From Cyanobacteria bacterium P01_A01_bin.123 (lineage in GTDB: Bacteria > Cyanobacteriota > Cyanobacteriia > Phormidesmidales > Phormidesmidaceae), in contig JBCBZT010000025.1 of assembly GCA_039815185.1 (NCBI GenBank), positions 45,416 to 109,415 on the forward strand: 64,000 nucleotides of DNA, read 5' to 3'. Position 1 is the first letter of the stretch; every line of letters begins with the position of its first letter. This document shows positions 3,682 through 12,424 of this stretch, one piece after another. A program made the position numbers and the translations under genes. The notes beneath the pieces were generated by a model, which was not told where the DNA came from, made no database searches, and worked only from the letters and a program-made list of their open reading frames with translations.

Positions 3682-4407
3682 ATGTTGGGGTTCTTGCTAG
3701 CCGTTTGTCTGGCCTTACTACACCTGTTTGTTGGAAAGTTGAGCGGCTTTAAGTATGTTTCCCATCGCCGCTGGATCTCTTTAGCAGGTGGCGTTTCCAT
3801 TGCTTACATTTTTCTTGATGTTTTTCCAGAATTGGCCCACGCCCAAGAAGAGATAGAGCACTCAGAAATCTCGATCTTGGCCTATCTAGAACAGCATGTG
3901 TATTTATTGGCGCTGCTGGGATTAGTGCTGTTTTATGGCTTAGATAAATTAGCGCTGCGATCGCGAACTCACAATCAAAAAATGAGCCAAGTAGATGCCA
4001 CTGGTGTGGGCGTTTTCTGGGTTCATATTGCGGCCTTTGCCATCTATAACGCCATTTTGGGCTATCTGTTCCGAGAATCAGCAGATCATGGACTTGTCGC
4101 TTGCCTGCTGTTATTTATCACGCTAGGGCTACATTTCTTAGTCAATGATCTAGGCATGAGAGAACACCATAAGCACAGCTACGACCGATTGGGGCGGTGG
4201 ATTCTCGCGGCTGCCATTATTGCGGGATGGGCTGTTGCGCAGGCGGTCATTTTCAACCCTGCTGCGATCGCCGTGATTTGGGCCATCGTTGCAGGCGGCA
4301 TTATTCTAAATGTTTTGAAAGAAGAATTGCCCGAACAACGTGAAAGTGATTTTATTACTTTCCTGACCGGGGCACTAGGGTATGGTGCGCTGCTGTTAAT
4401 TGTTTAA
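3682..4407 (+). CDS. Multi-pass membrane protein, possibly ZIP-like metal transporter related
   Basis: AGGAG RBS before the ATG at 3682; about 7-8 hydrophobic helices; His-containing motif LHFLVND..MREHH and an LKEELP motif. Confidence 0.6.
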   Translation: MLGFLLAVCLALLHLFVGKLSGFKYVSHRRWISLAGGVSIAYIFLDVFPELAHAQEEIEHSEISILAYLEQHVYLLALLGLVLFYGLDKLALRSRTHNQKMSQVDATGVGVFWVHIAAFAIYNAILGYLFRESADHGLVACLLLFITLGLHFLVNDLGMREHHKHSYDRLGRWILAAAIIAGWAVAQAVIFNPAAIAVIWAIVAGGIILNVLKEELPEQRESDFITFLTGALGYGALLLIV

Positions 4408-4629: not shown

Positions 4630-6243
4630 GTGAATAAAGTTAAAGCGGCGATGTGGGCAGACTTACGCGATCGCCAACCTGCTGGAGCCATCATTGAAGG
4701 CGTTGATTTGGTGATCATTCGTTGGGATGATCAGGTTTCCGTCCTCTATGGACGCTGTCAGCATCGAGGCGCATTGATGGCTGATGGCCATGTTGAAGGC
4801 GAAAACCTAATTTGCGGTGTTCACCAGTGGGACTACCGGGTTGACACTGGCGTTAGCGCTTACAACAACAGCGAATTTTTGCCCAAATTCCAGGCCTGGG
4901 TAGAAGACGGTAGTGTCTATGTCGATGCCAATGAAATACTTGCCTGGAAGCAAACCCATCCCCAGCCCTACCAACGGGATGAGTATCAAGGCGAATATGC
5001 CGATATCCACGGCACCGTCGAAGAGCCAGCGACGAAATACATCCATGCCCTGGCGAAAGATGGCCTCTCTAAAGTGGGGCATCATGGCTCAGTGTCGGCC
5101 ATGGGTGTGGCAGCGCCAGATCTGCCAAAGTGGGACGATTTGCAATTTATTACTGCCCAATTGGCCCGTTTGCCCCAGCTGGAAGATGTGGAAGTCGGTA
5201 CCGAACTTGTAATTGGACCAAAAGCGAATCAACCGTTGAAGCTTGATATTCCCATCTTTGTCTCGGATATGAGCTTTGGGGCGCTCTCAGAAGAAGCCAA
5301 AGTTGCCCTGGCAAAAGGGGCAGAACTGGCAGGGACGGGCATCTGCTCCGGCGAAGGCGGTATGTTGCCCGAAGAACAAGGCAATAACAGTCGCTATTTT
5401 TACGAACTGGCTTCAGCCCGCTTCGGCTTTGCGCTTGAAAAACTGATGCAGGTGCAGGCGTTTCACTTCAAATGTGGCCAGGGGGCCAAAACGGGAACGG
5501 GGGGTCACCTGCCTGGTCACAAGGTGAAAGGCAAAATCGCTGAGGTTCGGGGTTTGAAGGAAGGCCAACCTGCTGTGTCTCCCCCCCGCTTCCCCGATTG
5601 GGAATCGATTGACGATTTTCGCAACTTTGCCGACACCGTTCGCGACACCACTGGGGGTATTCCCATTGGCGTAAAGTTATCGGCCCAGCATATCGAGCAA
5701 GATATCGACGCGGCCCTGCACATTGGGGTTGACTACATCATTTTGGATGGACGCGGCGGCGGCACCGGGGCAGCTCCGCTAATCTTCCGCGACAACATTT
5801 CAGTGCCGACCATCCCGGCTTTGGCACGGGCCAGACGCTACCTAGATCAGCGCGGTGCCAACCACGTCACCCTGATTGTCACGGGCGGGCTACGTACCCC
5901 AGCAGATTTTGCTAAAGCCTTGGCATTAGGGGCAGACGGCATTGCCGTGTCTAACGCAGCGATTCAGGCCATTGGCTGTCTTGGTATGCGGGCCTGTCAC
6001 ACCAACAACTGCCCGGTCGGTATCGCAACGCAGCGGGAAGATCTGCGATCGCGCCTAATTATCGACGAAGCCGCCCAACGCCTCGATCGCTTTTTCCGCG
6101 CCTCAGTCGAACTCATGGCCATCATGGCTCGCGCCTGTGGTCACACCCACCTGAGTCAGTTTTGCCCTGACGACCTCACCACCTGGAAACGGGATATGGC
6201 GTATTTGAGTGGGGTGAGTTATGGCGGGGTGATGCCTTTGTAG
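4630..6243 (+). CDS. Rieske [2Fe-2S] domain fused to FMN-binding glutamate synthase domain
   Basis: N-terminal CQH...CGVH Rieske ligands; MSFGALS, SGEGG, KCGQGAK and DGRGGGTGAAP FMN-domain motifs; CLGMRACHTNNCPVG [3Fe-4S] motif. No glutamine amidotransferase domain. Confidence 0.88.
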   Translation: MNKVKAAMWADLRDRQPAGAIIEGVDLVIIRWDDQVSVLYGRCQHRGALMADGHVEGENLICGVHQWDYRVDTGVSAYNNSEFLPKFQAWVEDGSVYVDANEILAWKQTHPQPYQRDEYQGEYADIHGTVEEPATKYIHALAKDGLSKVGHHGSVSAMGVAAPDLPKWDDLQFITAQLARLPQLEDVEVGTELVIGPKANQPLKLDIPIFVSDMSFGALSEEAKVALAKGAELAGTGICSGEGGMLPEEQGNNSRYFYELASARFGFALEKLMQVQAFHFKCGQGAKTGTGGHLPGHKVKGKIAEVRGLKEGQPAVSPPRFPDWESIDDFRNFADTVRDTTGGIPIGVKLSAQHIEQDIDAALHIGVDYIILDGRGGGTGAAPLIFRDNISVPTIPALARARRYLDQRGANHVTLIVTGGLRTPADFAKALALGADGIAVSNAAIQAIGCLGMRACHTNNCPVGIATQREDLRSRLIIDEAAQRLDRFFRASVELMAIMARACGHTHLSQFCPDDLTTWKRDMAYLSGVSYGGVMPL

Positions 6244-6505
6244 GGGAGAGGGAGTGGGGGAGTGGGGGAGTAAGGGAGTTGATGTGAGGAAGATGGGGCA
6301 GGTGGGGAGGAATTTACCAAAGGTTCTACCCGATCCCCCGATCACGCCAACCCTGAGGGACACCGCTGTCATATCTACACCCGATCCTCCCATCCCCCCA
6401 CCTTCCCCATCCCTCCACCATCCCTTCTACCCGATCCCCCCATCCCTCCACCAGCCCTTCTACCCGATCACCCCCCACCCTCCCCTGCTCCCCCTCCTCC
6501 CTTAC
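6244..6505. repeat. G-rich then C-rich low-complexity spacer containing a 33-bp tandem repeat
   Basis: G-runs at 6243-6310 and C-runs at 6380-6505. Units CCCCATCCCTCCACCA(T/G)CCCTTCTACCCGATC(C/A) at 6405-6437 and 6438-6470. Confidence 0.8.
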
Positions 6506-6530
6506 CCAAATCACTAATGCGAGACTCACC

Positions 6531-8486
6531 ATGACAACCTCTTCCCCCCACTGGCATCGCATACTCGATCTGGATGAACTCCCCGAAGGTCGAGTCAAAA
6601 CTGTAACGGTTGGCCACAAAAGTCTGGCGGTGACCCACCACGACGGGCAGTACGGGGCCTTAGACAACCACTGCCCCCACCAGGGGGGGCCATTGGGGGA
6701 GGGTTCGATTGAGAATGGACTGTTGCGATGTCCCTGGCACGGGTGGGACTACTGTCCCCTGACAGGTAAGGCTCCTGGTGACTTAGAGGTGGACGATGCC
6801 CTCGAAACCTTTGCTACAGAGGTACGAGCGGACGGGGTTTATGTGGCCATGCCAGAGGAGGAAACCCACATCCGCACGGTTACCGATGTGATGGCGGAAA
6901 CCCTGGTGAACTGGGGCGTGACCCATATTTTTGGCATGGTGGGCCACTCTAATTTGGGCTTGGCCGATGCCCTGCGTCGTCAAGAAAAACAGGGCAAGCT
7001 GACGTTCATTGGTATTCGTCACGAGGGGGCAGGGGCGTTTGCGGCTTCGGCCTATGCCAAATTGACGGGTCGCCCGGCGGCTTGTTTGACCATTGCCGGG
7101 CCAGGGGCGACGAACCTGCTGACAGGCATGTGGGACGCCAAGGTCGATCGCGCCCCGATTTTGGCCCTAACTGGGCAAGTGAAATCCCAGGTGTTGGGTA
7201 CGGGCAACTTTCAAGAATGTGATTTGGCGGCGGCATTTAGCGGCGTTGCGGTTTGGAGCCAAACGGTATTAAGCCATAGCAAGCATGCTGAGCTCGTGAG
7301 TCAGGCGGTGAAGCATGCGCTACTTCAGCGAGATGTGGCCCATCTGATTTTCCCCGATGAGGTACAGACTGAGCCCGCCGTGGCTGAGGCTAAAGCTGCT
7401 AGCCCGGTGGGGCGGTTGACACCGCTGCAAATTGCGCCGCCACCAGAATCTTTGGATCAGGCTCTGACCTTACTGAAATCGGCTAAGCGTCCGGTGATTA
7501 TTGTCGGGCATGGCGCTCGGTTTACCATGCCGCCGATCATTGCTCTGGCAGAATTGTTGAACGCGCCCGTGTTAACCACGTTTAAGGGGAAGGGGCAAAT
7601 TTCTGACCGTCATCCCCTAGGCTGTGGGGTGTTGGGACGCAGCGGTACCCCGATTGCTTCTTGGTTTATGAACGAGTCTGATCTATTGCTGGTATTTGGC
7701 GCATCTTTCTCAAACCATACGGGGATTTATTCAGGCAAACCCACCATTCAAGTAGACTTTGACCCGATGGCATTGGGCAAATTTCATCCCGTAACGGTGC
7801 CCGTGTGGGGGGAAATCAGCGTGGTGGTAGAGCAATTCAAAACAGCGCTGGTGGATCACAACGGTACTGAAGATCAGCGGCCTCAAGTGGCGGAACGCTG
7901 GGCTATCTGGCGGGCGGAAAAACTGCGTCGTGAACGGGATGATCGGGGTAACGGGGTGAATTCAGCGGCGATCTTTGCGGCGATGACTCGCCAGGTGCCT
8001 GCCAATGCCGTGATTTCAGTCGATGTGGGCAACAATACTTATTCTTTTGGACGCTACTTTGAGTGCGAGGCCCAGTCGGTGCTGATGTCGGGGTATCTGG
8101 GCTCTATTGGCTTTGGATTTCCGGGGGCGATGGGGGCTTGGGCAGCGGCAGGCCATGAACGCCCGATTGTCTCTGTCTCTGGAGATGGTGGGTTTGGGCA
8201 GTATATGGGCGACTTCAACACGGCGGTGAAATACGGCATGAACATCACCCACATCCTGCTGAACAACAGTGAACTCGGCAAAATTAGCAAAGAGCAGCGA
8301 GCCGGGGAATGGGATGTGTGGCAAACGTCGCTGCATAATCCTGATTTTTCTAAATATGCCGAAATTTGTGGGGGGTTTGGGGTGCGAGTGATCCAATCGG
8401 ATGAGTTGGATAACGCGATCGCGTCCGCATTGGCCTACAATGGCCCAGCCATCGTCGAGGTGATGGCTGATGTGGATTTGATTTAA
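6531..8486 (+). CDS. Rieske [2Fe-2S] domain fused to TPP-dependent pyruvate oxidase/acetolactate-synthase-family enzyme
   Basis: CPHQGGPLGEG...CPWHGW Rieske motif; IRHE catalytic Glu; GPGATN; TPP motif GDGG...LLNN. Confidence 0.88.
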   Translation: MTTSSPHWHRILDLDELPEGRVKTVTVGHKSLAVTHHDGQYGALDNHCPHQGGPLGEGSIENGLLRCPWHGWDYCPLTGKAPGDLEVDDALETFATEVRADGVYVAMPEEETHIRTVTDVMAETLVNWGVTHIFGMVGHSNLGLADALRRQEKQGKLTFIGIRHEGAGAFAASAYAKLTGRPAACLTIAGPGATNLLTGMWDAKVDRAPILALTGQVKSQVLGTGNFQECDLAAAFSGVAVWSQTVLSHSKHAELVSQAVKHALLQRDVAHLIFPDEVQTEPAVAEAKAASPVGRLTPLQIAPPPESLDQALTLLKSAKRPVIIVGHGARFTMPPIIALAELLNAPVLTTFKGKGQISDRHPLGCGVLGRSGTPIASWFMNESDLLLVFGASFSNHTGIYSGKPTIQVDFDPMALGKFHPVTVPVWGEISVVVEQFKTALVDHNGTEDQRPQVAERWAIWRAEKLRRERDDRGNGVNSAAIFAAMTRQVPANAVISVDVGNNTYSFGRYFECEAQSVLMSGYLGSIGFGFPGAMGAWAAAGHERPIVSVSGDGGFGQYMGDFNTAVKYGMNITHILLNNSELGKISKEQRAGEWDVWQTSLHNPDFSKYAEICGGFGVRVIQSDELDNAIASALAYNGPAIVEVMADVDLI

Positions 8487-8612
8487 ACCTTATTCAAGTT
8501 CAGACCTGGAATTTTGCCTATAGGAAAAGTCCACATTCCGAGCTGAACTTGGTATAGGTCAATTCTTTGGCCGATTTACAGAACTGTTTTGCAAGGTTGA
8601 GAGGTAATCAAA

Positions 8613-8888
8613 ATGGATGGGGTTGGGGTTGCGATCGCAGAAACGATTATCAAAATTGTGCGGGGCTATTTGTTCGCCGGATTGGTTTTTTCTGTACCCT
8701 TCTTAATTTTTGGCATTCAGCGCGTAGATCCGTCGGTGCGCTGGCATAACATCCTGTTTCGGGTTTTCATTTTGCCCGGTCTTTGCGTCTTCTGGCCGCT
8801 GTTTGCCGTGCGTTTAGTGCGGGGTAAGCGCCACCCGGTTGAACGCAATGCCCACCGCATTGCTGCTGGCCAAAACCATCCAGCTTAG
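8613..8888 (+). CDS. Small two-TM hypothetical membrane protein
   Basis: GAGG RBS; two hydrophobic helices with RVDP and FRVFILPGLCVFWPL; first gene of a tightly spaced run. Confidence 0.75.
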   Translation: MDGVGVAIAETIIKIVRGYLFAGLVFSVPFLIFGIQRVDPSVRWHNILFRVFILPGLCVFWPLFAVRLVRGKRHPVERNAHRIAAGQNHPA

Positions 8889-8899
8889 GGAGAGTCACG

Positions 8900-9400
8900 A
8901 TGATTTTAGAAGAACGTCGAGTGCATTTCTACGCCTTTTCAGGGCTGGCTGTGGTGTTGCCCATCGTGTTCATTGCTGGGTTAGTGCTGCGCCCCAACTA
9001 TGATGCTGTGAGCAATGAAGCAACTACCGATCTCTTTGCCCAAGCCGGATTTGCCACGGGGGAGGCTGGAGAGGCGATCGCCTCTGACACCCTCTCCCTA
9101 AAGGGAATTACCCTCACGGCAGAGTCAACTCGCAGCTCTGAGGGCGCTGTAATTTTGACCCTCCAACCCCAGCGCGACCCTGAAGTTGCTGATTTGTTGG
9201 TCTATTGGATGGCAGGTGAGGGCGAACCCGAAACCATTGATGCTGATGTCGTACTGCTGGGCCAGTTGGCCGGCACCGCCCGCCGCCAGTTTGAGGTACC
9301 CGCAGGGATTCAGGGGCAGGCTGGGCAACTGGTGTTTTATAGCCAAGGCCAACAGCAGGTCATTGGCACCGCACCGCTATCGGCAGAGATGACTCAGTAA
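8900..9400 (+). CDS. Hypothetical protein with N-terminal TM anchor and acidic soluble domain
   Basis: 11 bp after the previous gene; one TM helix (GLAVVLPIVFIAGLVL); DLLVYW and LLGQL motifs. Confidence 0.75.
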   Translation: MILEERRVHFYAFSGLAVVLPIVFIAGLVLRPNYDAVSNEATTDLFAQAGFATGEAGEAIASDTLSLKGITLTAESTRSSEGAVILTLQPQRDPEVADLLVYWMAGEGEPETIDADVVLLGQLAGTARRQFEVPAGIQGQAGQLVFYSQGQQQVIGTAPLSAEMTQ

Positions 9401-9411
9401 GGGATTGAACT

Positions 9412-10494
9412 ATGAGTACGGCCTACAAATCGATTCAGTGGAATCGTCAAAAAATTATTTATGACCTGGTGCTGTGGGCAGCGGTGGCGGCTTACATTGT
9501 GCTGTTTATGAGGGTGACCCAAAACATCGGCAGCGACCTAGACCTACGCGGTGTCCGGATTCGCGCCTACGGGTCGGCGGCGTTTATTTTGCTGCACGTA
9601 ATTCTTTCCATTGGTCCCCTGACCCGCCTTAGCCCCAAGTTTTACCCCCTGCTGTTTAACCGACGGCACATGGGGGTGACGATGTTTTTCTTAGCCCTGG
9701 TGCATGTGGTGGGGTTAGAGTTACCGCTCTTGCCCTGGAAGTTTGACGGTGCTCTCACCTGGTACCACGATTTTGGCAATCTCGACCCATTGGTGAGCCT
9801 ATTTGTCGGCAATAGCCACTATGGCGACTTTATCCAGTTTCCGTTTGAAATGCTGGGTGTTGTCGCGTTGGCAATCTTGTTTGTGATGGCGGCCACGAGC
9901 CATGATTTTTGGTTGGTTAACCTCACGGCTCCGATTTGGAAGGCGCTGCACATGGGGGTATATCTGGCCTATGGGTTGCTGGTAGGGCACGTGGTGCTGG
10001 GGGCGCTGCAAAGCAACCGCCATCCGCTATTGACTGTTGCCGTAGGTGTCGGATTTGTGTGGATTGTGGGTCTGCATTGGCTGGCTGGTAAGCGAGAATT
10101 CGATCGCGATAAATCCCCAATTTCCGCCCCTCAAGATGGATTTGTTGAGGTGGGCAGCGTTAGCGATATTCCTGAGAGTCGCGCCAAAATCGTTACCCTG
10201 GCCGGAGAACGGGTAGCCATCTTTAAGTACGACGGCGAAATTTCGGCAGTGTCCAATGTGTGCCAGCACCAAAACGGCCCCCTGGGCGAGGGCAAAGTGG
10301 TGGATGGCTGCATCACCTGTCCCTGGCATGGCTATCAGTATTTGCCAGAGGAAGGGGCATCCCCACCCCCCTTTACCGAGCGCATTCCCACCTTTGATGT
10401 GAAACTCAACGGCGATCGCATCTGGGTCAAAACCACCCCAAATCCACCGGGTACCCATACCCCTGCTGCCGTGATTCCCCCTCAATTTGTCTAG
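9412..10494 (+). CDS. Ferric-reductase/MsrQ-like heme-b transmembrane domain fused to C-terminal Rieske domain
   Basis: RRHMG...ALVH and WKALH.GVY......GHV, a YedZ/MsrQ-like His pattern; C-terminal CQHQNGPLGEG...CPWHGY Rieske motif. Confidence 0.85.
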   Translation: MSTAYKSIQWNRQKIIYDLVLWAAVAAYIVLFMRVTQNIGSDLDLRGVRIRAYGSAAFILLHVILSIGPLTRLSPKFYPLLFNRRHMGVTMFFLALVHVVGLELPLLPWKFDGALTWYHDFGNLDPLVSLFVGNSHYGDFIQFPFEMLGVVALAILFVMAATSHDFWLVNLTAPIWKALHMGVYLAYGLLVGHVVLGALQSNRHPLLTVAVGVGFVWIVGLHWLAGKREFDRDKSPISAPQDGFVEVGSVSDIPESRAKIVTLAGERVAIFKYDGEISAVSNVCQHQNGPLGEGKVVDGCITCPWHGYQYLPEEGASPPPFTERIPTFDVKLNGDRIWVKTTPNPPGTHTPAAVIPPQFV

Positions 10495-10515
10495 GATTTT
10501 TGTCTGAGAACCGCC

Positions 10516-11274
10516 ATGAGCACTCCAACCAACGACGAGTTTTACGTCAATTACGGTAAGATTCCCCCCAGCTATCGCCGCTTCTTGGTGAAATTTATCC
10601 CCCTTTTGGTGATTGGGGCGATTCTATTTGCATTAATCTTTCCCCGCGTCCACGACCAGTTCAATTTGGGCAAAATCCAGGGCGTTAAAGAATATGAGGG
10701 TTTTCTAGCGACCAACCCGGTTCCCCACATCATCGTGCCTCGACCTGGCAATACCGCAGGCGAAGCCGCCTTTTCTCGCTACATTCTCTCAGCGACCAAT
10801 AAGGCTGGCCCGAGCCCCAGAATTCTGGAGCAAGCGGGTAACTGGGTCACCCTCAGCGGCATTTTAGTCTCGCGCAATAACCTGTCGGTAGTAGCTGTAC
10901 GCTCTGCCGAACCGCTCGATCCGCCTGCAGGGGTGACCGTGCGCCCTGACGAGGGCGTCTCGCTCGGCGAATTTGCTTTGGATGGCGAAATCGTGGATGG
11001 CAAATGCTATCCCGGTATTATGAAACCGGGGCGAACTAAAACCCACCGAGCCTGTGCTATTCGCTGCATTAGCGGCGGCGTACCCGCTGTATTTCGCGTC
11101 AGCAACGGTGGTGATGTGATGTATTTCTTGCTGGCTGATTTAGCAGGAGAAGCCGTCAATGATCGGGTTTTGGATTTAGTCGCCGATGATGTGCGCATCA
11201 CTGGAGAAGTCATTCAATATGACGACATGTATGTGATTCAGTCTGACCCAGCCAGCTATGAGCGGTTGGGCTAG
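10516..11274 (+). CDS. Membrane-anchored hypothetical protein with C-x12-H-x2-C-x3-C motif
   Basis: One TM helix near the N-terminus; GEIVDGKCYPGIMKPGRTKTHRACAIRCISGG. Confidence 0.8.
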   Translation: MSTPTNDEFYVNYGKIPPSYRRFLVKFIPLLVIGAILFALIFPRVHDQFNLGKIQGVKEYEGFLATNPVPHIIVPRPGNTAGEAAFSRYILSATNKAGPSPRILEQAGNWVTLSGILVSRNNLSVVAVRSAEPLDPPAGVTVRPDEGVSLGEFALDGEIVDGKCYPGIMKPGRTKTHRACAIRCISGGVPAVFRVSNGGDVMYFLLADLAGEAVNDRVLDLVADDVRITGEVIQYDDMYVIQSDPASYERLG

Positions 11275-11300
11275 TTATTTAAACAGGGTTGACAGGCGTT

Positions 11301-11999
11301 ATGGGGCTAGAACTGAAAAGTGTTGTCCCATGGGGGCGCTGTTTTGATGAATATCGTCGCATGTTCGAGCTCAGTGATGCTGACTTGGCCCGCACCCTGC
11401 TGGACTGTGGTGGTGGCCCTGCCAGCTTTAACACCGAGATGACTCAGCGGGGATACACCATCACCTCTTGCGACCCGATTTATCAGTTCTCCGCTGTCGA
11501 AATTGCCCAACGGATTGACGCCACCTATGCCACCATCATCAGTGGCGTTCTAGAAAATCTGGATCACTACGTTTGGCGTGAGATTCCCAATCCAGAGGTA
11601 CTGGGCAAAGTTCGGATGGCTGCCATGACCCAGTTTTTAGCCGACTTTCCAACCGGGCTGGCGGCAGGTCGCTACCAGGTGGCAGCTTTGCCCAACCTGC
11701 CCTTTGCCGATCACCAGTTTGACTTGGCCTTGTGTAGCCATTTGCTTTTTACCTATTCTGACCAGTTGTCGCTGGCATTTCATTTAGAGGCGATAGAAAG
11801 CCTGTGTCGTGTTGCCTCAGAAGTGCGAATTTTCCCGTTGTTGCGTTTGGATGGGGAAGCCTCACCTTGGTTACCCCCCATTCTTGACCGTCTACAAACC
11901 CAGAACTTAGAATACGAAGTCAGAATCACGGCCTACGAATTTCAAATGGGTGGCAATCAGCTATTAAAAATTTTTTCTGGCAATCGCGGCAAAGCATGA
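11301..11999 (+). CDS. Class I SAM-dependent methyltransferase-like protein
   Basis: LLDCGGGPASF motif I; LPFADHQFDLALCSH motif II. Confidence 0.8.
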   Translation: MGLELKSVVPWGRCFDEYRRMFELSDADLARTLLDCGGGPASFNTEMTQRGYTITSCDPIYQFSAVEIAQRIDATYATIISGVLENLDHYVWREIPNPEVLGKVRMAAMTQFLADFPTGLAAGRYQVAALPNLPFADHQFDLALCSHLLFTYSDQLSLAFHLEAIESLCRVASEVRIFPLLRLDGEASPWLPPILDRLQTQNLEYEVRITAYEFQMGGNQLLKIFSGNRGKA

Positions 12000-12424
12000 A
12001 AGCGAATCCTACAGAACCTATACCGGCAGAAGCTATTCAACGACTCCACTCTGGCGCACCGTGGGAATCTCAAGTGGGGTATTGTCGAGCCGTGCGGGTG
12101 GGTAACTTTATTACCGTTTCCGGTACTGCCCCCATTGACGAACAGGGTCAAACCTATGCCCCTGGCGATGCCTATGCCCAGGCCCGCCGCTGCCTAGAAC
12201 TGATTCAGCAGATCTTAGAAAAAATGGATTCGGGCTGCGATCGCGTGATTCGCACTCGTATGTTTGTCACCGACATTAGCCGCTGGGCCGAATATGGCAA
12301 AGCCCACGGTGAGTTTTTTGCTGCCCATCCCCCCGCCACGTCAATGGTGGAAGTGAAGGCGTTAATTGATCCTGAAATGCTGATCGAGATTGAGGCGGAG
12401 GCCTTTGTTACCCTGCCTGATTAA
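11996..12424 (+). CDS. Rid (YjgF/YER057c/UK114) family protein
   Basis: GYCRAVRVG..ITVSGT, HGEFF..HPPATSMVEV..LI...MLIEIEA; ATGA overlap with the methyltransferase gene. Confidence 0.88.
   Translation: MKANPTEPIPAEAIQRLHSGAPWESQVGYCRAVRVGNFITVSGTAPIDEQGQTYAPGDAYAQARRCLELIQQILEKMDSGCDRVIRTRMFVTDISRWAEYGKAHGEFFAAHPPATSMVEVKALIDPEMLIEIEAEAFVTLPD

Follow-up and report, generated by a model that had tools for sequence, protein, structure and literature searches.

Six genes and three Rieske domains at the locus

A stretch of 64,000 nucleotides from contig JBCBZT010000025.1 of Cyanobacteria bacterium P01_A01_bin.123 (referred to throughout as the window) carries, at positions 4630 to 11274, six co-oriented open reading frames (ORFs) on the + strand, separated by intergenic gaps of 287, 126, 11, 11 and 21 bp (Table 1). 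Comparison of this gene cluster with related loci in other genomes indicated that it is composed of two separable modules, which occur together often but not always and which do not form one fixed circuit. Module A consists of the genes for RGlt and RTPP, and module B of the genes for s91, s166, FRR and CH252.

Domains were called on the six proteins using the Pfam gathering scores and the NCBIfam equivalog cut-offs. Matches above the gathering score were obtained for RGlt (Rieske, PF00355, and Glu_synthase, PF01645), RTPP (Rieske and the N, M and C domains of the TPP family) and FRR (Ferric_reduct, PF01794, and Rieske, PF00355), and no Pfam or NCBIfam family was detected for s91, s166 or CH252. 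All three Rieske CxH..CxxH ligand sets were intact, being C43/H45/C62/H65 in RGlt, C48/H50/C67/H70 in RTPP and C284/H286/C303/H306 in FRR. The ORFs, the Pfam matches and the ligand residues agreed with an earlier note, made from the sequence alone, in which six co-oriented genes with three intact Rieske domains had been described. The host is a cyanobacterium, as indicated by 9,048 HIP1 sites in the genome and by nearest relatives that were cyanobacterial. Each of the six genes was present in a single copy, and two GltB-like genes, IlvB and a PRK08322-type enzyme are encoded elsewhere in the genome, indicating that the cluster is accessory; the presence of these other genes excluded a role as a stand-in for missing core enzymes. 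The clustering of the six genes exceeds chance, as it recurs in other phyla and in differing orders.

Table 1. Genes and sequence features in and beside the cluster (positions within the window)
Feature	Position	Strand	Length	Description
RGlt (A1)	4630-6243	+	537 aa	N-terminal Rieske domain and glutamate-synthase-type flavin mononucleotide (FMN) barrel, [3Fe-4S]
RTPP (A2)	6531-8486	+	651 aa	N-terminal Rieske domain and thiamine diphosphate (ThDP)/flavin adenine dinucleotide (FAD) enzyme, pyruvate oxidase (POX)/acetohydroxyacid synthase (AHAS) superfamily
s91 (B1)	8613-8888	+	91 aa	Small membrane protein with two transmembrane (TM) helices, no cofactor ligands
s166 (B2)	8900-9400	+	166 aa	N-terminal TM helix and periplasmic beta-sandwich
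FRR (B3)	9412-10494	+	360 aa	6-TM MsrQ/STEAP-type flavocytochrome domain (predicted) and cytoplasmic C-terminal Rieske domain
CH252 (B4)	10516-11274	+	252 aa	N-terminal TM anchor and two periplasmic OB-fold domains (predicted)
Rieske ligand motif 1, divergent type (C43-H65, RGlt)	4756..4824	+		
Rieske ligand motif 2 (C48-H70, RTPP)	6672..6740	+		
Rieske ligand motif 3 (C284-H306, FRR)	10261..10329	+		
ZIP-like His-rich membrane protein	3682..4407	+		Pfam Zip 20 bits, below cut-off

The module B genes stay together and encode membrane proteins

A profile of CH252 detected at least 587 relatives in a species-genome collection, and the best 80 loci (given L numbers below) were taken for counts of module B. 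Intactness was scored on the 71 of these loci that had more than 2.3 kb of upstream sequence. In 68 of the 71 informative loci CH252 was accompanied by s91, s166 and FRR; the exceptions were L010, which had no s91 match, and L047 and L054, which held CH252 alone. The loci were spread over Cyanobacteriota, Nitrospirota, Verrucomicrobiota, Planctomycetota, Acidobacteriota, Bacteroidota, Calditrichota and others, and the block was also detected on a Rhizobium plasmid. Furthermore, FRR and CH252 formed a single polypeptide in L040, L063 and L148, and this fusion was observed in 14/14 longer CH252 relatives. Among the best 150 FRR matches listed, 65 representatives were full length, and 38 of these carried the fusion. 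These results indicated that module B is a fixed unit.

Hydropathy and positive-inside counts detected six TM helices in FRR with both termini inside, which places the Rieske domain of FRR in the cytoplasm, and assigned the soluble portions of s166 and CH252 to the outer side. The FRR-CH252 fusions agree with this topology. All three Rieske domains are thereby placed on the cytoplasmic side, which was consistent with the earlier proposal that the soluble enzymes exchange electrons with the membrane complex. A predicted complex of the four B proteins scored 0.80, compared to 0.73 for a control, and was weighed neither way.

FRR shares the flavin- and heme-site residues of MsrQ

Alignment of FRR with Escherichia coli MsrQ matched R84/R85 with R77/R78 and S163/W176/H180 with S135/W147/H151 in 83/83 relatives. 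The residues of the MsrQ FMN site (R84, R85, T162, S163, W176 and H180) were conserved in all 83, and M159, at the position of MsrQ L131, was Met in 77 and Leu in 6. In MsrQ, R77, R78 and H151 are required for FMN binding, and L131, S135 and W147 were modelled around the flavin (excerpts of PMC12525009). A heme pair, H98/H193, corresponded to MsrQ H91/H164 on the periplasmic side (83/83), and replacement of the first heme His in TM3 by Arg is a signature of YedZ/STEAP proteins (excerpts of PMC3591440). Because the MsrQ FMN site and one heme pair are kept, FRR is, as judged from its sequence, an MsrQ/STEAP-type and not a di-heme protein, most likely holding one heme and one FMN. As a correction to the earlier description of an MsrQ-like heme-b membrane protein, the membrane domain has one canonical heme pair plus an FMN site and not two hemes. 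Two extra histidines were detected, H86 in 83/83 and H164, which was invariant in 59. A di-heme arrangement (H86/H98/H180/H193) was rejected, as R84 and not H86 occupies the canonical His position. Assignment to the NOX/FRE di-heme ferric reductase domain (FRD) proteins was rejected on the grounds that the first His is R84, that H86 is two residues off and that the C-terminal domain is a Rieske domain.

FRR resembles the membrane subunit of MsrPQ (YedYZ) of E. coli in the 6-TM domain, the Arg at the position of the first canonical heme His, the FMN-site residues, the single periplasm-side heme pair and the adjacent gene for a dedicated periplasmic partner. It differs in having a built-in cytoplasmic Rieske domain, whereas MsrQ uses the separate Fre reductase, and in the extra invariant H86 and H164. 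The partner of FRR is a membrane-anchored, putatively Cys3His OB-fold protein and that of MsrQ is the molybdoenzyme MsrP; module B also carries two extra membrane subunits compared to MsrPQ. A score of 33 was obtained on the MsrQ equivalog NF003831, compared to a cut-off of 130, and neither the ten ORFs of the window that were scanned nor the recurrent neighbour families included an MsrP. An architecture of FRD plus Rieske that may correspond to the FRR family is named without study in the legend to Figure 3 of PMC3591440, and other MsrQ-like clusters are described in PMC8238504, in excerpts of which no Rieske domain is mentioned.

CH252, s166 and s91

K96, D161, K163, C164, M169, H177, C180 and C184 of CH252 were invariant in 65/65 sequences, a pattern suggestive of a redox site built on a metal or on thiols. 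A structural model (predicted local distance difference test [pLDDT], 89.3) consisted of a TM helix and two beta domains, of which the N-terminal one matched OB folds with a best Z of 8.1. Fold searches returned generic OB folds and beta-sandwiches only and barely probed the C-terminal Cys/His domain, and no sequence relative was present in the PDB. By these comparisons, CH252 belongs to no known family. The membrane-anchored Cys/His protein proposed earlier was recovered as a periplasm-facing protein, frequently joined with the heme protein in one polypeptide.

In s166, R6 and H9 were conserved within the N-terminal TM helix. The beta-sandwich (model pLDDT, 91.6) gave SOD/PmoD-like matches with Z values of 7.4-7.9 only. 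This protein was shortened to a TM peptide of ~30 aa in L216 and L142 (2/5 loci examined) and was 54 aa long in L259; since it is reduced to the TM helix in some lineages, the beta-sandwich appears to be dispensable. A lead to DM13 (PF10517) scored 0.79, below 0.9, with no Pfam match, and the hhalign probability was 0.2 for a 4-sequence alignment with one row badly cut. For s91, hydropathy indicated two TM helices, and G23, W61 and P62 were invariant across 62 sequences. The earlier description of two small membrane proteins is corrected in that one (s91) has two TM helices and the other (s166) a single TM helix with a periplasmic beta-sandwich.

RTPP has an altered pyruvate oxidase active site

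The closest PDB match of RTPP was PoxB/pyruvate oxidase (E, 1e-63), and its scores fell below every NCBIfam equivalog cut-off (423/742 for PRK08611, 294/792 for PRK09124 and 290/638 for TIGR02720). RTPP resembles E. coli PoxB (PDB 3EY9/3EYA) and the Lactobacillus pyruvate oxidase in its ThDP motif, catalytic Glu, Phe-Gln pair and FAD-domain motifs; E165, D552 and N579 (the catalytic Glu and the ThDP motif GDG..N) were present in 97/97, and the FAD-domain motifs were conserved by alignment to PoxB. Unlike PoxB, it has an N-terminal Rieske domain, lacks the C-terminal tail, ending ~40 residues before the PoxB C-terminus, and has altered but invariant active-site residues, with H139 at PoxB D27 (96/97) and N501-N502, K584 and K587 at PoxB T382-P383, F465 and M468 (97/97). 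The C-terminal tail of PoxB mediates membrane binding, and Phe465 acts as a relay. In the absence of this tail, another exit for electrons would be needed in RTPP. As the invariant active site is not that of PoxB, RTPP probably has a new ThDP activity. The basic character of this site is suggestive of a substrate that is a dicarboxylic 2-oxo acid, 2-oxoglutarate or another diacid being more likely than pyruvate, and these residues cast doubt on pyruvate, the substrate suggested earlier. RTPP was 59-87% identical across bacterial phyla and was also found in haloarchaea.

The neighbours of RTPP were compared in 60 loci with 3-kb flanks, related genomes being kept in. RGlt only was found in 39 loci, a flavodoxin-like protein only in 8, neither in 13 and both in 0. 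The flavodoxin-like protein (L038:11587-12342), which was present beside RTPP in 12 loci, matched PDB 5MJI (E, 3e-38), which we take to be RosB. RosB uses thiamine, and the legend to a pathway figure lists glutamate and 2-oxoglutarate (excerpts of PMC12541554). The exclusion between RGlt and the RosB-like protein is a hint, and not proof, of a common glutamate/2-oxoglutarate link in which RTPP acts on 2-oxoglutarate.

Other genes were also observed near RTPP. A family of ~270 aa with a WPHHFD motif and no Pfam or NCBIfam family (L123:6894-7721, L007:6524-7447 and L216:8893-9684) was detected in 30/80 metagenome loci and, in a clade of the phylum of genome G383, 3' of CH252; it may be a seventh cluster member that was lost from the window. 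Eight metagenome loci, as well as Haloferax, had a stand-alone NAD(P)HX epimerase (YjeF_N) in the vicinity of RTPP (L140:3241-3924 and L260:10101-10832), a hint of a metabolite-damage or stress context. A gene for a CPA1 Na+/H+ antiporter was located beside RTPP in 23/80 metagenome loci, mostly low-GC ones (e.g., L124:8748-10016).

RGlt is related to the FMN domain of glutamate synthase

Alignment of RGlt was limited to residues ~856-1190 of the large chains of glutamate synthase (GltS), which form the FMN/[3Fe-4S] part, and E242, K287, R307, T379, G380 and the [3Fe-4S] cysteines C450/C456/C461 were invariant in 38/38 relatives. In GltS, the Lys, Arg and Thr-Gly residues serve the 2-oxoglutarate site. 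The likeness to glutamate synthase (PDB 7MFM, 1EA0 and 1LLW) extends to the FMN barrel, these 2-oxoglutarate-site residues and the [3Fe-4S] cysteines. The differences are the N-terminal Rieske domain and the lack of glutamine-derived ammonia: with 537 aa and PF01645 and PF00355 only, RGlt is devoid of the glutamine amidotransferase, central and GXGXG domains, and it scored 157 on PRK11750, for which the cut-off is 1047. No partner amidotransferase was found among the recurrent neighbour families. As an amidotransferase is neither fused nor recurrently adjacent, the reactions open to RGlt would be amination with free ammonia and oxidation of glutamate, and we infer that it oxidises glutamate, with the electrons passing into the Rieske centre. 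Other stand-alone relatives of the FMN domain are MgsC and archaeal GltS. Fusion of an FeS domain to Glu_synthase has been noted for CDGSH (excerpts of PMC5859297). Overall, by these family comparisons, the parts of both modules resemble known kinds and none qualifies as MsrQ-in-MsrPQ, PoxB or GltS.

The link between modules A and B is recurrent but optional

In 80 RTPP metagenome loci, RGlt was present in 45, module B in 21 and all three in 17; in a strict subset with 4-kb flanks and near-duplicates removed (n = 29), the respective numbers were 20, 10 and 9. At least six gene orders were observed: A-B in the window, L007, L046, L127 and L124; B-ZIP-A in L026; a divergent arrangement in L058; RGlt-B-RTPP, with B inserted between both A genes, in L113, L119, L142 and L216; B-RTPP in L148 and L217; and RGlt-B in L223 and others. 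The full set of six genes recurred as a group in Cyanobacteriota, Acidobacteriota and Planctomycetota and on low-GC metagenome contigs, so that the co-occurrence across phyla for which the earlier note had proposed a search was detected.

Presence of the A genes was then compared in 78 genomes with module B (37 cyanobacterial and 41 other), L001 (near-self) and L034 (a duplicate) being excluded. RTPP was present in 14/37 cyanobacterial and 9/41 other B genomes (23/78), compared to 0/300 in a baseline of evenly drawn Cyanobacteriota that was unmatched for habitat and genome size. RGlt was detected in 17/78, and RGlt or RTPP in 25/78. Among 172 genomes of the window's family (G000 left out), 13 had RTPP, 21 had FRR and 11 had both, and RGlt occurred in 2, each with RTPP and FRR. 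In a second sample, of 300 genomes from the phylum of G383, RTPP was detected in 6 genomes and FRR in 16; 4 genomes had both, in adjacent positions. In this phylum, 13/16 B regions carried RGlt (10), RTPP (4) or both within the same gene run, and most of these regions share flanking genes and represent one clade. In a tree of RTPP (55 rows, near-duplicates removed, five B rows found via B), adjacency to module B changed 13 times, with at least 8 of these changes forced. These results indicated that the A-B link is recurrent but optional.

Comparison of the three Rieske domains

The Rieske ligands were intact in relatives of all three proteins (38/38 for RGlt, 85/85 for FRR and 92/99 by pattern for RTPP, the exceptions being six with a longer loop and one row that was a different enzyme). 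The domains resemble the Rieske ferredoxins of ring-hydroxylating dioxygenases and NirD in the CxH..CxxH pattern, with BphF, NahAb and CarAc as the best PDB matches; they differ in that each is fused as a tag to a catalytic domain, the three catalytic domains being unrelated, and in that the cluster encodes neither an oxygenase nor an NAD(P)H reductase. The motif HQxGPLGEG..CPWHG was, as described earlier, common to Rieske 2 (RTPP) and Rieske 3 (FRR). Mean identity between these two was 36%, and Rieske 1 was 22-24% identical to either. The tree of the Rieske domains that the earlier note had called for, built with 13 outgroups all from the same genome, joined Rieske 2 and Rieske 3 as sisters (90/65, unstarred) and left Rieske 1 apart. 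A fourth protein of this kind, a fusion of Rieske and FMN_red domains, was encoded immediately 3' of module B in a Lentisphaerae sequence (L064:11175-12275), which fits acceptance by B of electrons from Rieske-tagged flavoproteins generally.

Proposed function and alternatives

The arrangement of the two modules suggested a facultative partnership, in which B is an outward conduit and A an optional donor; we give this reading close to, and just short of, an even chance. Module B would work in the manner of MsrQ/STEAP proteins, with electrons entering at the cytoplasmic Rieske domain of FRR, crossing the membrane via the bound FMN and one b heme, and reaching the Cys3His(+Met) site of periplasmic CH252, which would take the place of MsrP; s91 and the helix of s166 would be structural subunits. 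Module A would be a soluble flavo-dehydrogenase pair that discharges electrons through its own Rieske domains, RGlt most likely converting glutamate to 2-oxoglutarate and ammonia and RTPP performing the oxidative decarboxylation of a 2-oxo acid, for which a diacid such as 2-oxoglutarate is a likelier candidate than pyruvate. A would serve as one donor where both modules are present, and other flavin or ferredoxin donors would feed B elsewhere. The likely purpose is to provide reductant outside the cytoplasm for redox defence or repair of the envelope. In non-cyanobacterial loci (n = 41), module B had redox-stress neighbours (MsrAB in 8, YHS in 12, extracytoplasmic function [ECF] sigma factors in 10 and DinB in 16), and in Rhizobium it was followed by an ECF sigma factor, two NrsF/DUF1109 proteins and a chlorite-dismutase-family gene. 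In Azospira, SigF/NrsF controls the reactive chlorine response that involves YedY (excerpts of PMC4436054), and this parallel, together with the MsrAB, YHS and ECF neighbours, makes envelope redox defence the best guess.

Several observations weigh against this partnership. Neither A gene was found in 53/78 B genomes, many of which are incomplete metagenome-assembled genomes and some single-chromosome records. A adjoined only 3/42 widely flanked B loci and 8/80 overall, one of them near-self; the association within genus g4 was not significant (6/1/7/8, p = 0.16); the baseline of 300 genomes was not matched; and no B or RGlt gene was found at haloarchaeal RTPP loci (2/2). The MsrAB, YHS and ECF neighbours were absent from cyanobacterial B loci (0/39), and DinB likewise. 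Unrelated stand-alone ferredoxins encoded on plasmids were 35-43% identical to Rieske 2 or Rieske 3, and such equal similarity indicates that the shared motif marks a broad subfamily and not a private code. Ferredoxin-type Rieske centres have a potential of about -150 mV. The potentials of MsrQ are -340 mV for FMN and about -250 mV for heme (excerpts of PMC12525009), and with values of this kind lying below that of the Rieske centre, outward flow would start uphill unless H86/H164 retune the flavin.

The dedicated circuit proposed in the earlier note, an obligate six-protein system with co-evolved Rieske docking domains, was judged highly improbable. Recurrence of the six genes in several phyla speaks for it; the modules nevertheless separate freely, and complete genomes with one module, the B genomes without either soluble enzyme and the haloarchaeal RTPP loci without B or a GltS gene largely refute it. 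The supposed matching of the Rieske domains was also found to be weak, given the identities above, and Rieske 1 is unrelated to the other two at the subfamily level. The reading that A and B are independent stress-responsive units in mobile redox-stress islands which share regulation only is unlikely, while still to be taken seriously. The B genomes without A, the repeated changes of adjacency on the RTPP tree, the varied stress genes that gather at both modules and the lack of special matching between the Rieske domains would all follow from co-location. Set against these are the position of B between or against the A genes, co-oriented and in several orders and lineages, the ferredoxin-type Rieske domains on all three catalytic proteins, with a further Rieske flavoprotein beside B in L064, and the absence of a membrane anchor from RTPP itself.

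Two alternatives retain a link to electron transfer and change its destination. That B passes electrons from the Rieske domains of A to the quinone pool as a respiratory sink, in place of the PoxB membrane anchor, or that flow is inward from a periplasmic donor bound to CH252, was considered improbable. Low flavin and heme potentials would favour flow toward the Rieske centre, and the missing anchor of RTPP would be accounted for by a sink. Ubiquinone is bound by MsrQ and has been proposed as its acceptor (excerpts of PMC12525009). An obligatory, often fused periplasmic partner would, however, be unneeded in a quinone sink, and characterised FRD proteins export electrons (excerpts of PMC3591440). 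The second alternative is a STEAP-like Fe3+/Cu2+ reductase for uptake, in which the Cys3His/Met set of CH252 would hold the metal and the ZIP-like neighbour would import it; in its favour are the STEAP-type signature in FRR (excerpts of PMC3591440), the Cys/His/Met ligands of CH252 and the occurrence, at 10 further cyanobacterial loci, of a ZIP-like gene next to A or B. This reading was regarded as distinctly improbable, as the Zip match is below the cut-off and limited to cyanobacteria and no metal transporter or TonB receptor was present among the recurrent neighbour families scanned.

If, as in the facultative partnership, A feeds B, the two modules would couple the oxidation of amino acids or keto acids directly, without NAD(P)H, to envelope redox chemistry. 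A bolder and rather doubtful extension is a widespread, undescribed electron bus, in which the Rieske domains are interchangeable docking tags, several soluble flavoenzymes (a glutamate oxidoreductase, a 2-oxoglutarate oxidase and a Rieske-FMN reductase) bypass NAD(P)H and electrons from glutamate, through 2-oxoglutarate to succinate, reach an FMN/one-heme conduit and a periplasmic Cys3His/Met OB-fold redox protein of a new class. Module B adds a third type of partnership to those in which the MsrQ/STEAP conduit takes part, is present in hundreds of species and has a periplasmic protein that, on present comparisons, is of no known family. The architecture had been called uncharacterised, and a search of the full-text literature, which covers neither subscription papers nor supplements, returned no paper on a Rieske/TPP/GltS/FRD cluster and no study of the system. 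The proposals are directly testable, as the parts are small and expressible and hosts can be grown in culture: Rhizobium for work on B, haloarchaea for RTPP and marine cyanobacteria for both.

Surroundings of the cluster

Scans for promoters and terminators gave results at chance level (4 vs 7.9 for promoters and 14 vs 12 for terminators). The gaps at 6244-6530 and 8487-8612 contain repeated elements that match elsewhere in the genome (12 and 6 BLAST hits, respectively, including self), and the former has a G-rich tract followed by a C-rich one. Downstream of CH252, methyltransferase and Rid-family genes at 11289-12424 are tightly coupled (gaps of 14 and -4 bp). These genes were not kept with the cluster, a Rid match being present in 2/80 loci (L001 and L054). 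The Rid protein (gene 11996-12424) has a Thr at the motif position of the catalytic Arg of RidA, which we take to be Arg105. The other loci with a ZIP-like gene beside A or B were L007, L025, L026, L028, L038, L110, L236, L246, L247 and L252, and this gene is an accessory neighbour seen in cyanobacteria only. Downstream of module B in cyanobacterial loci (n = 39), EamA was found in 15, a glutathione-synthetase-like ATP-grasp protein in 13 and a cysteine-dioxygenase-like protein in 9, and GNAT proteins were also detected; an example of this neighbourhood is L009:10885-14665.

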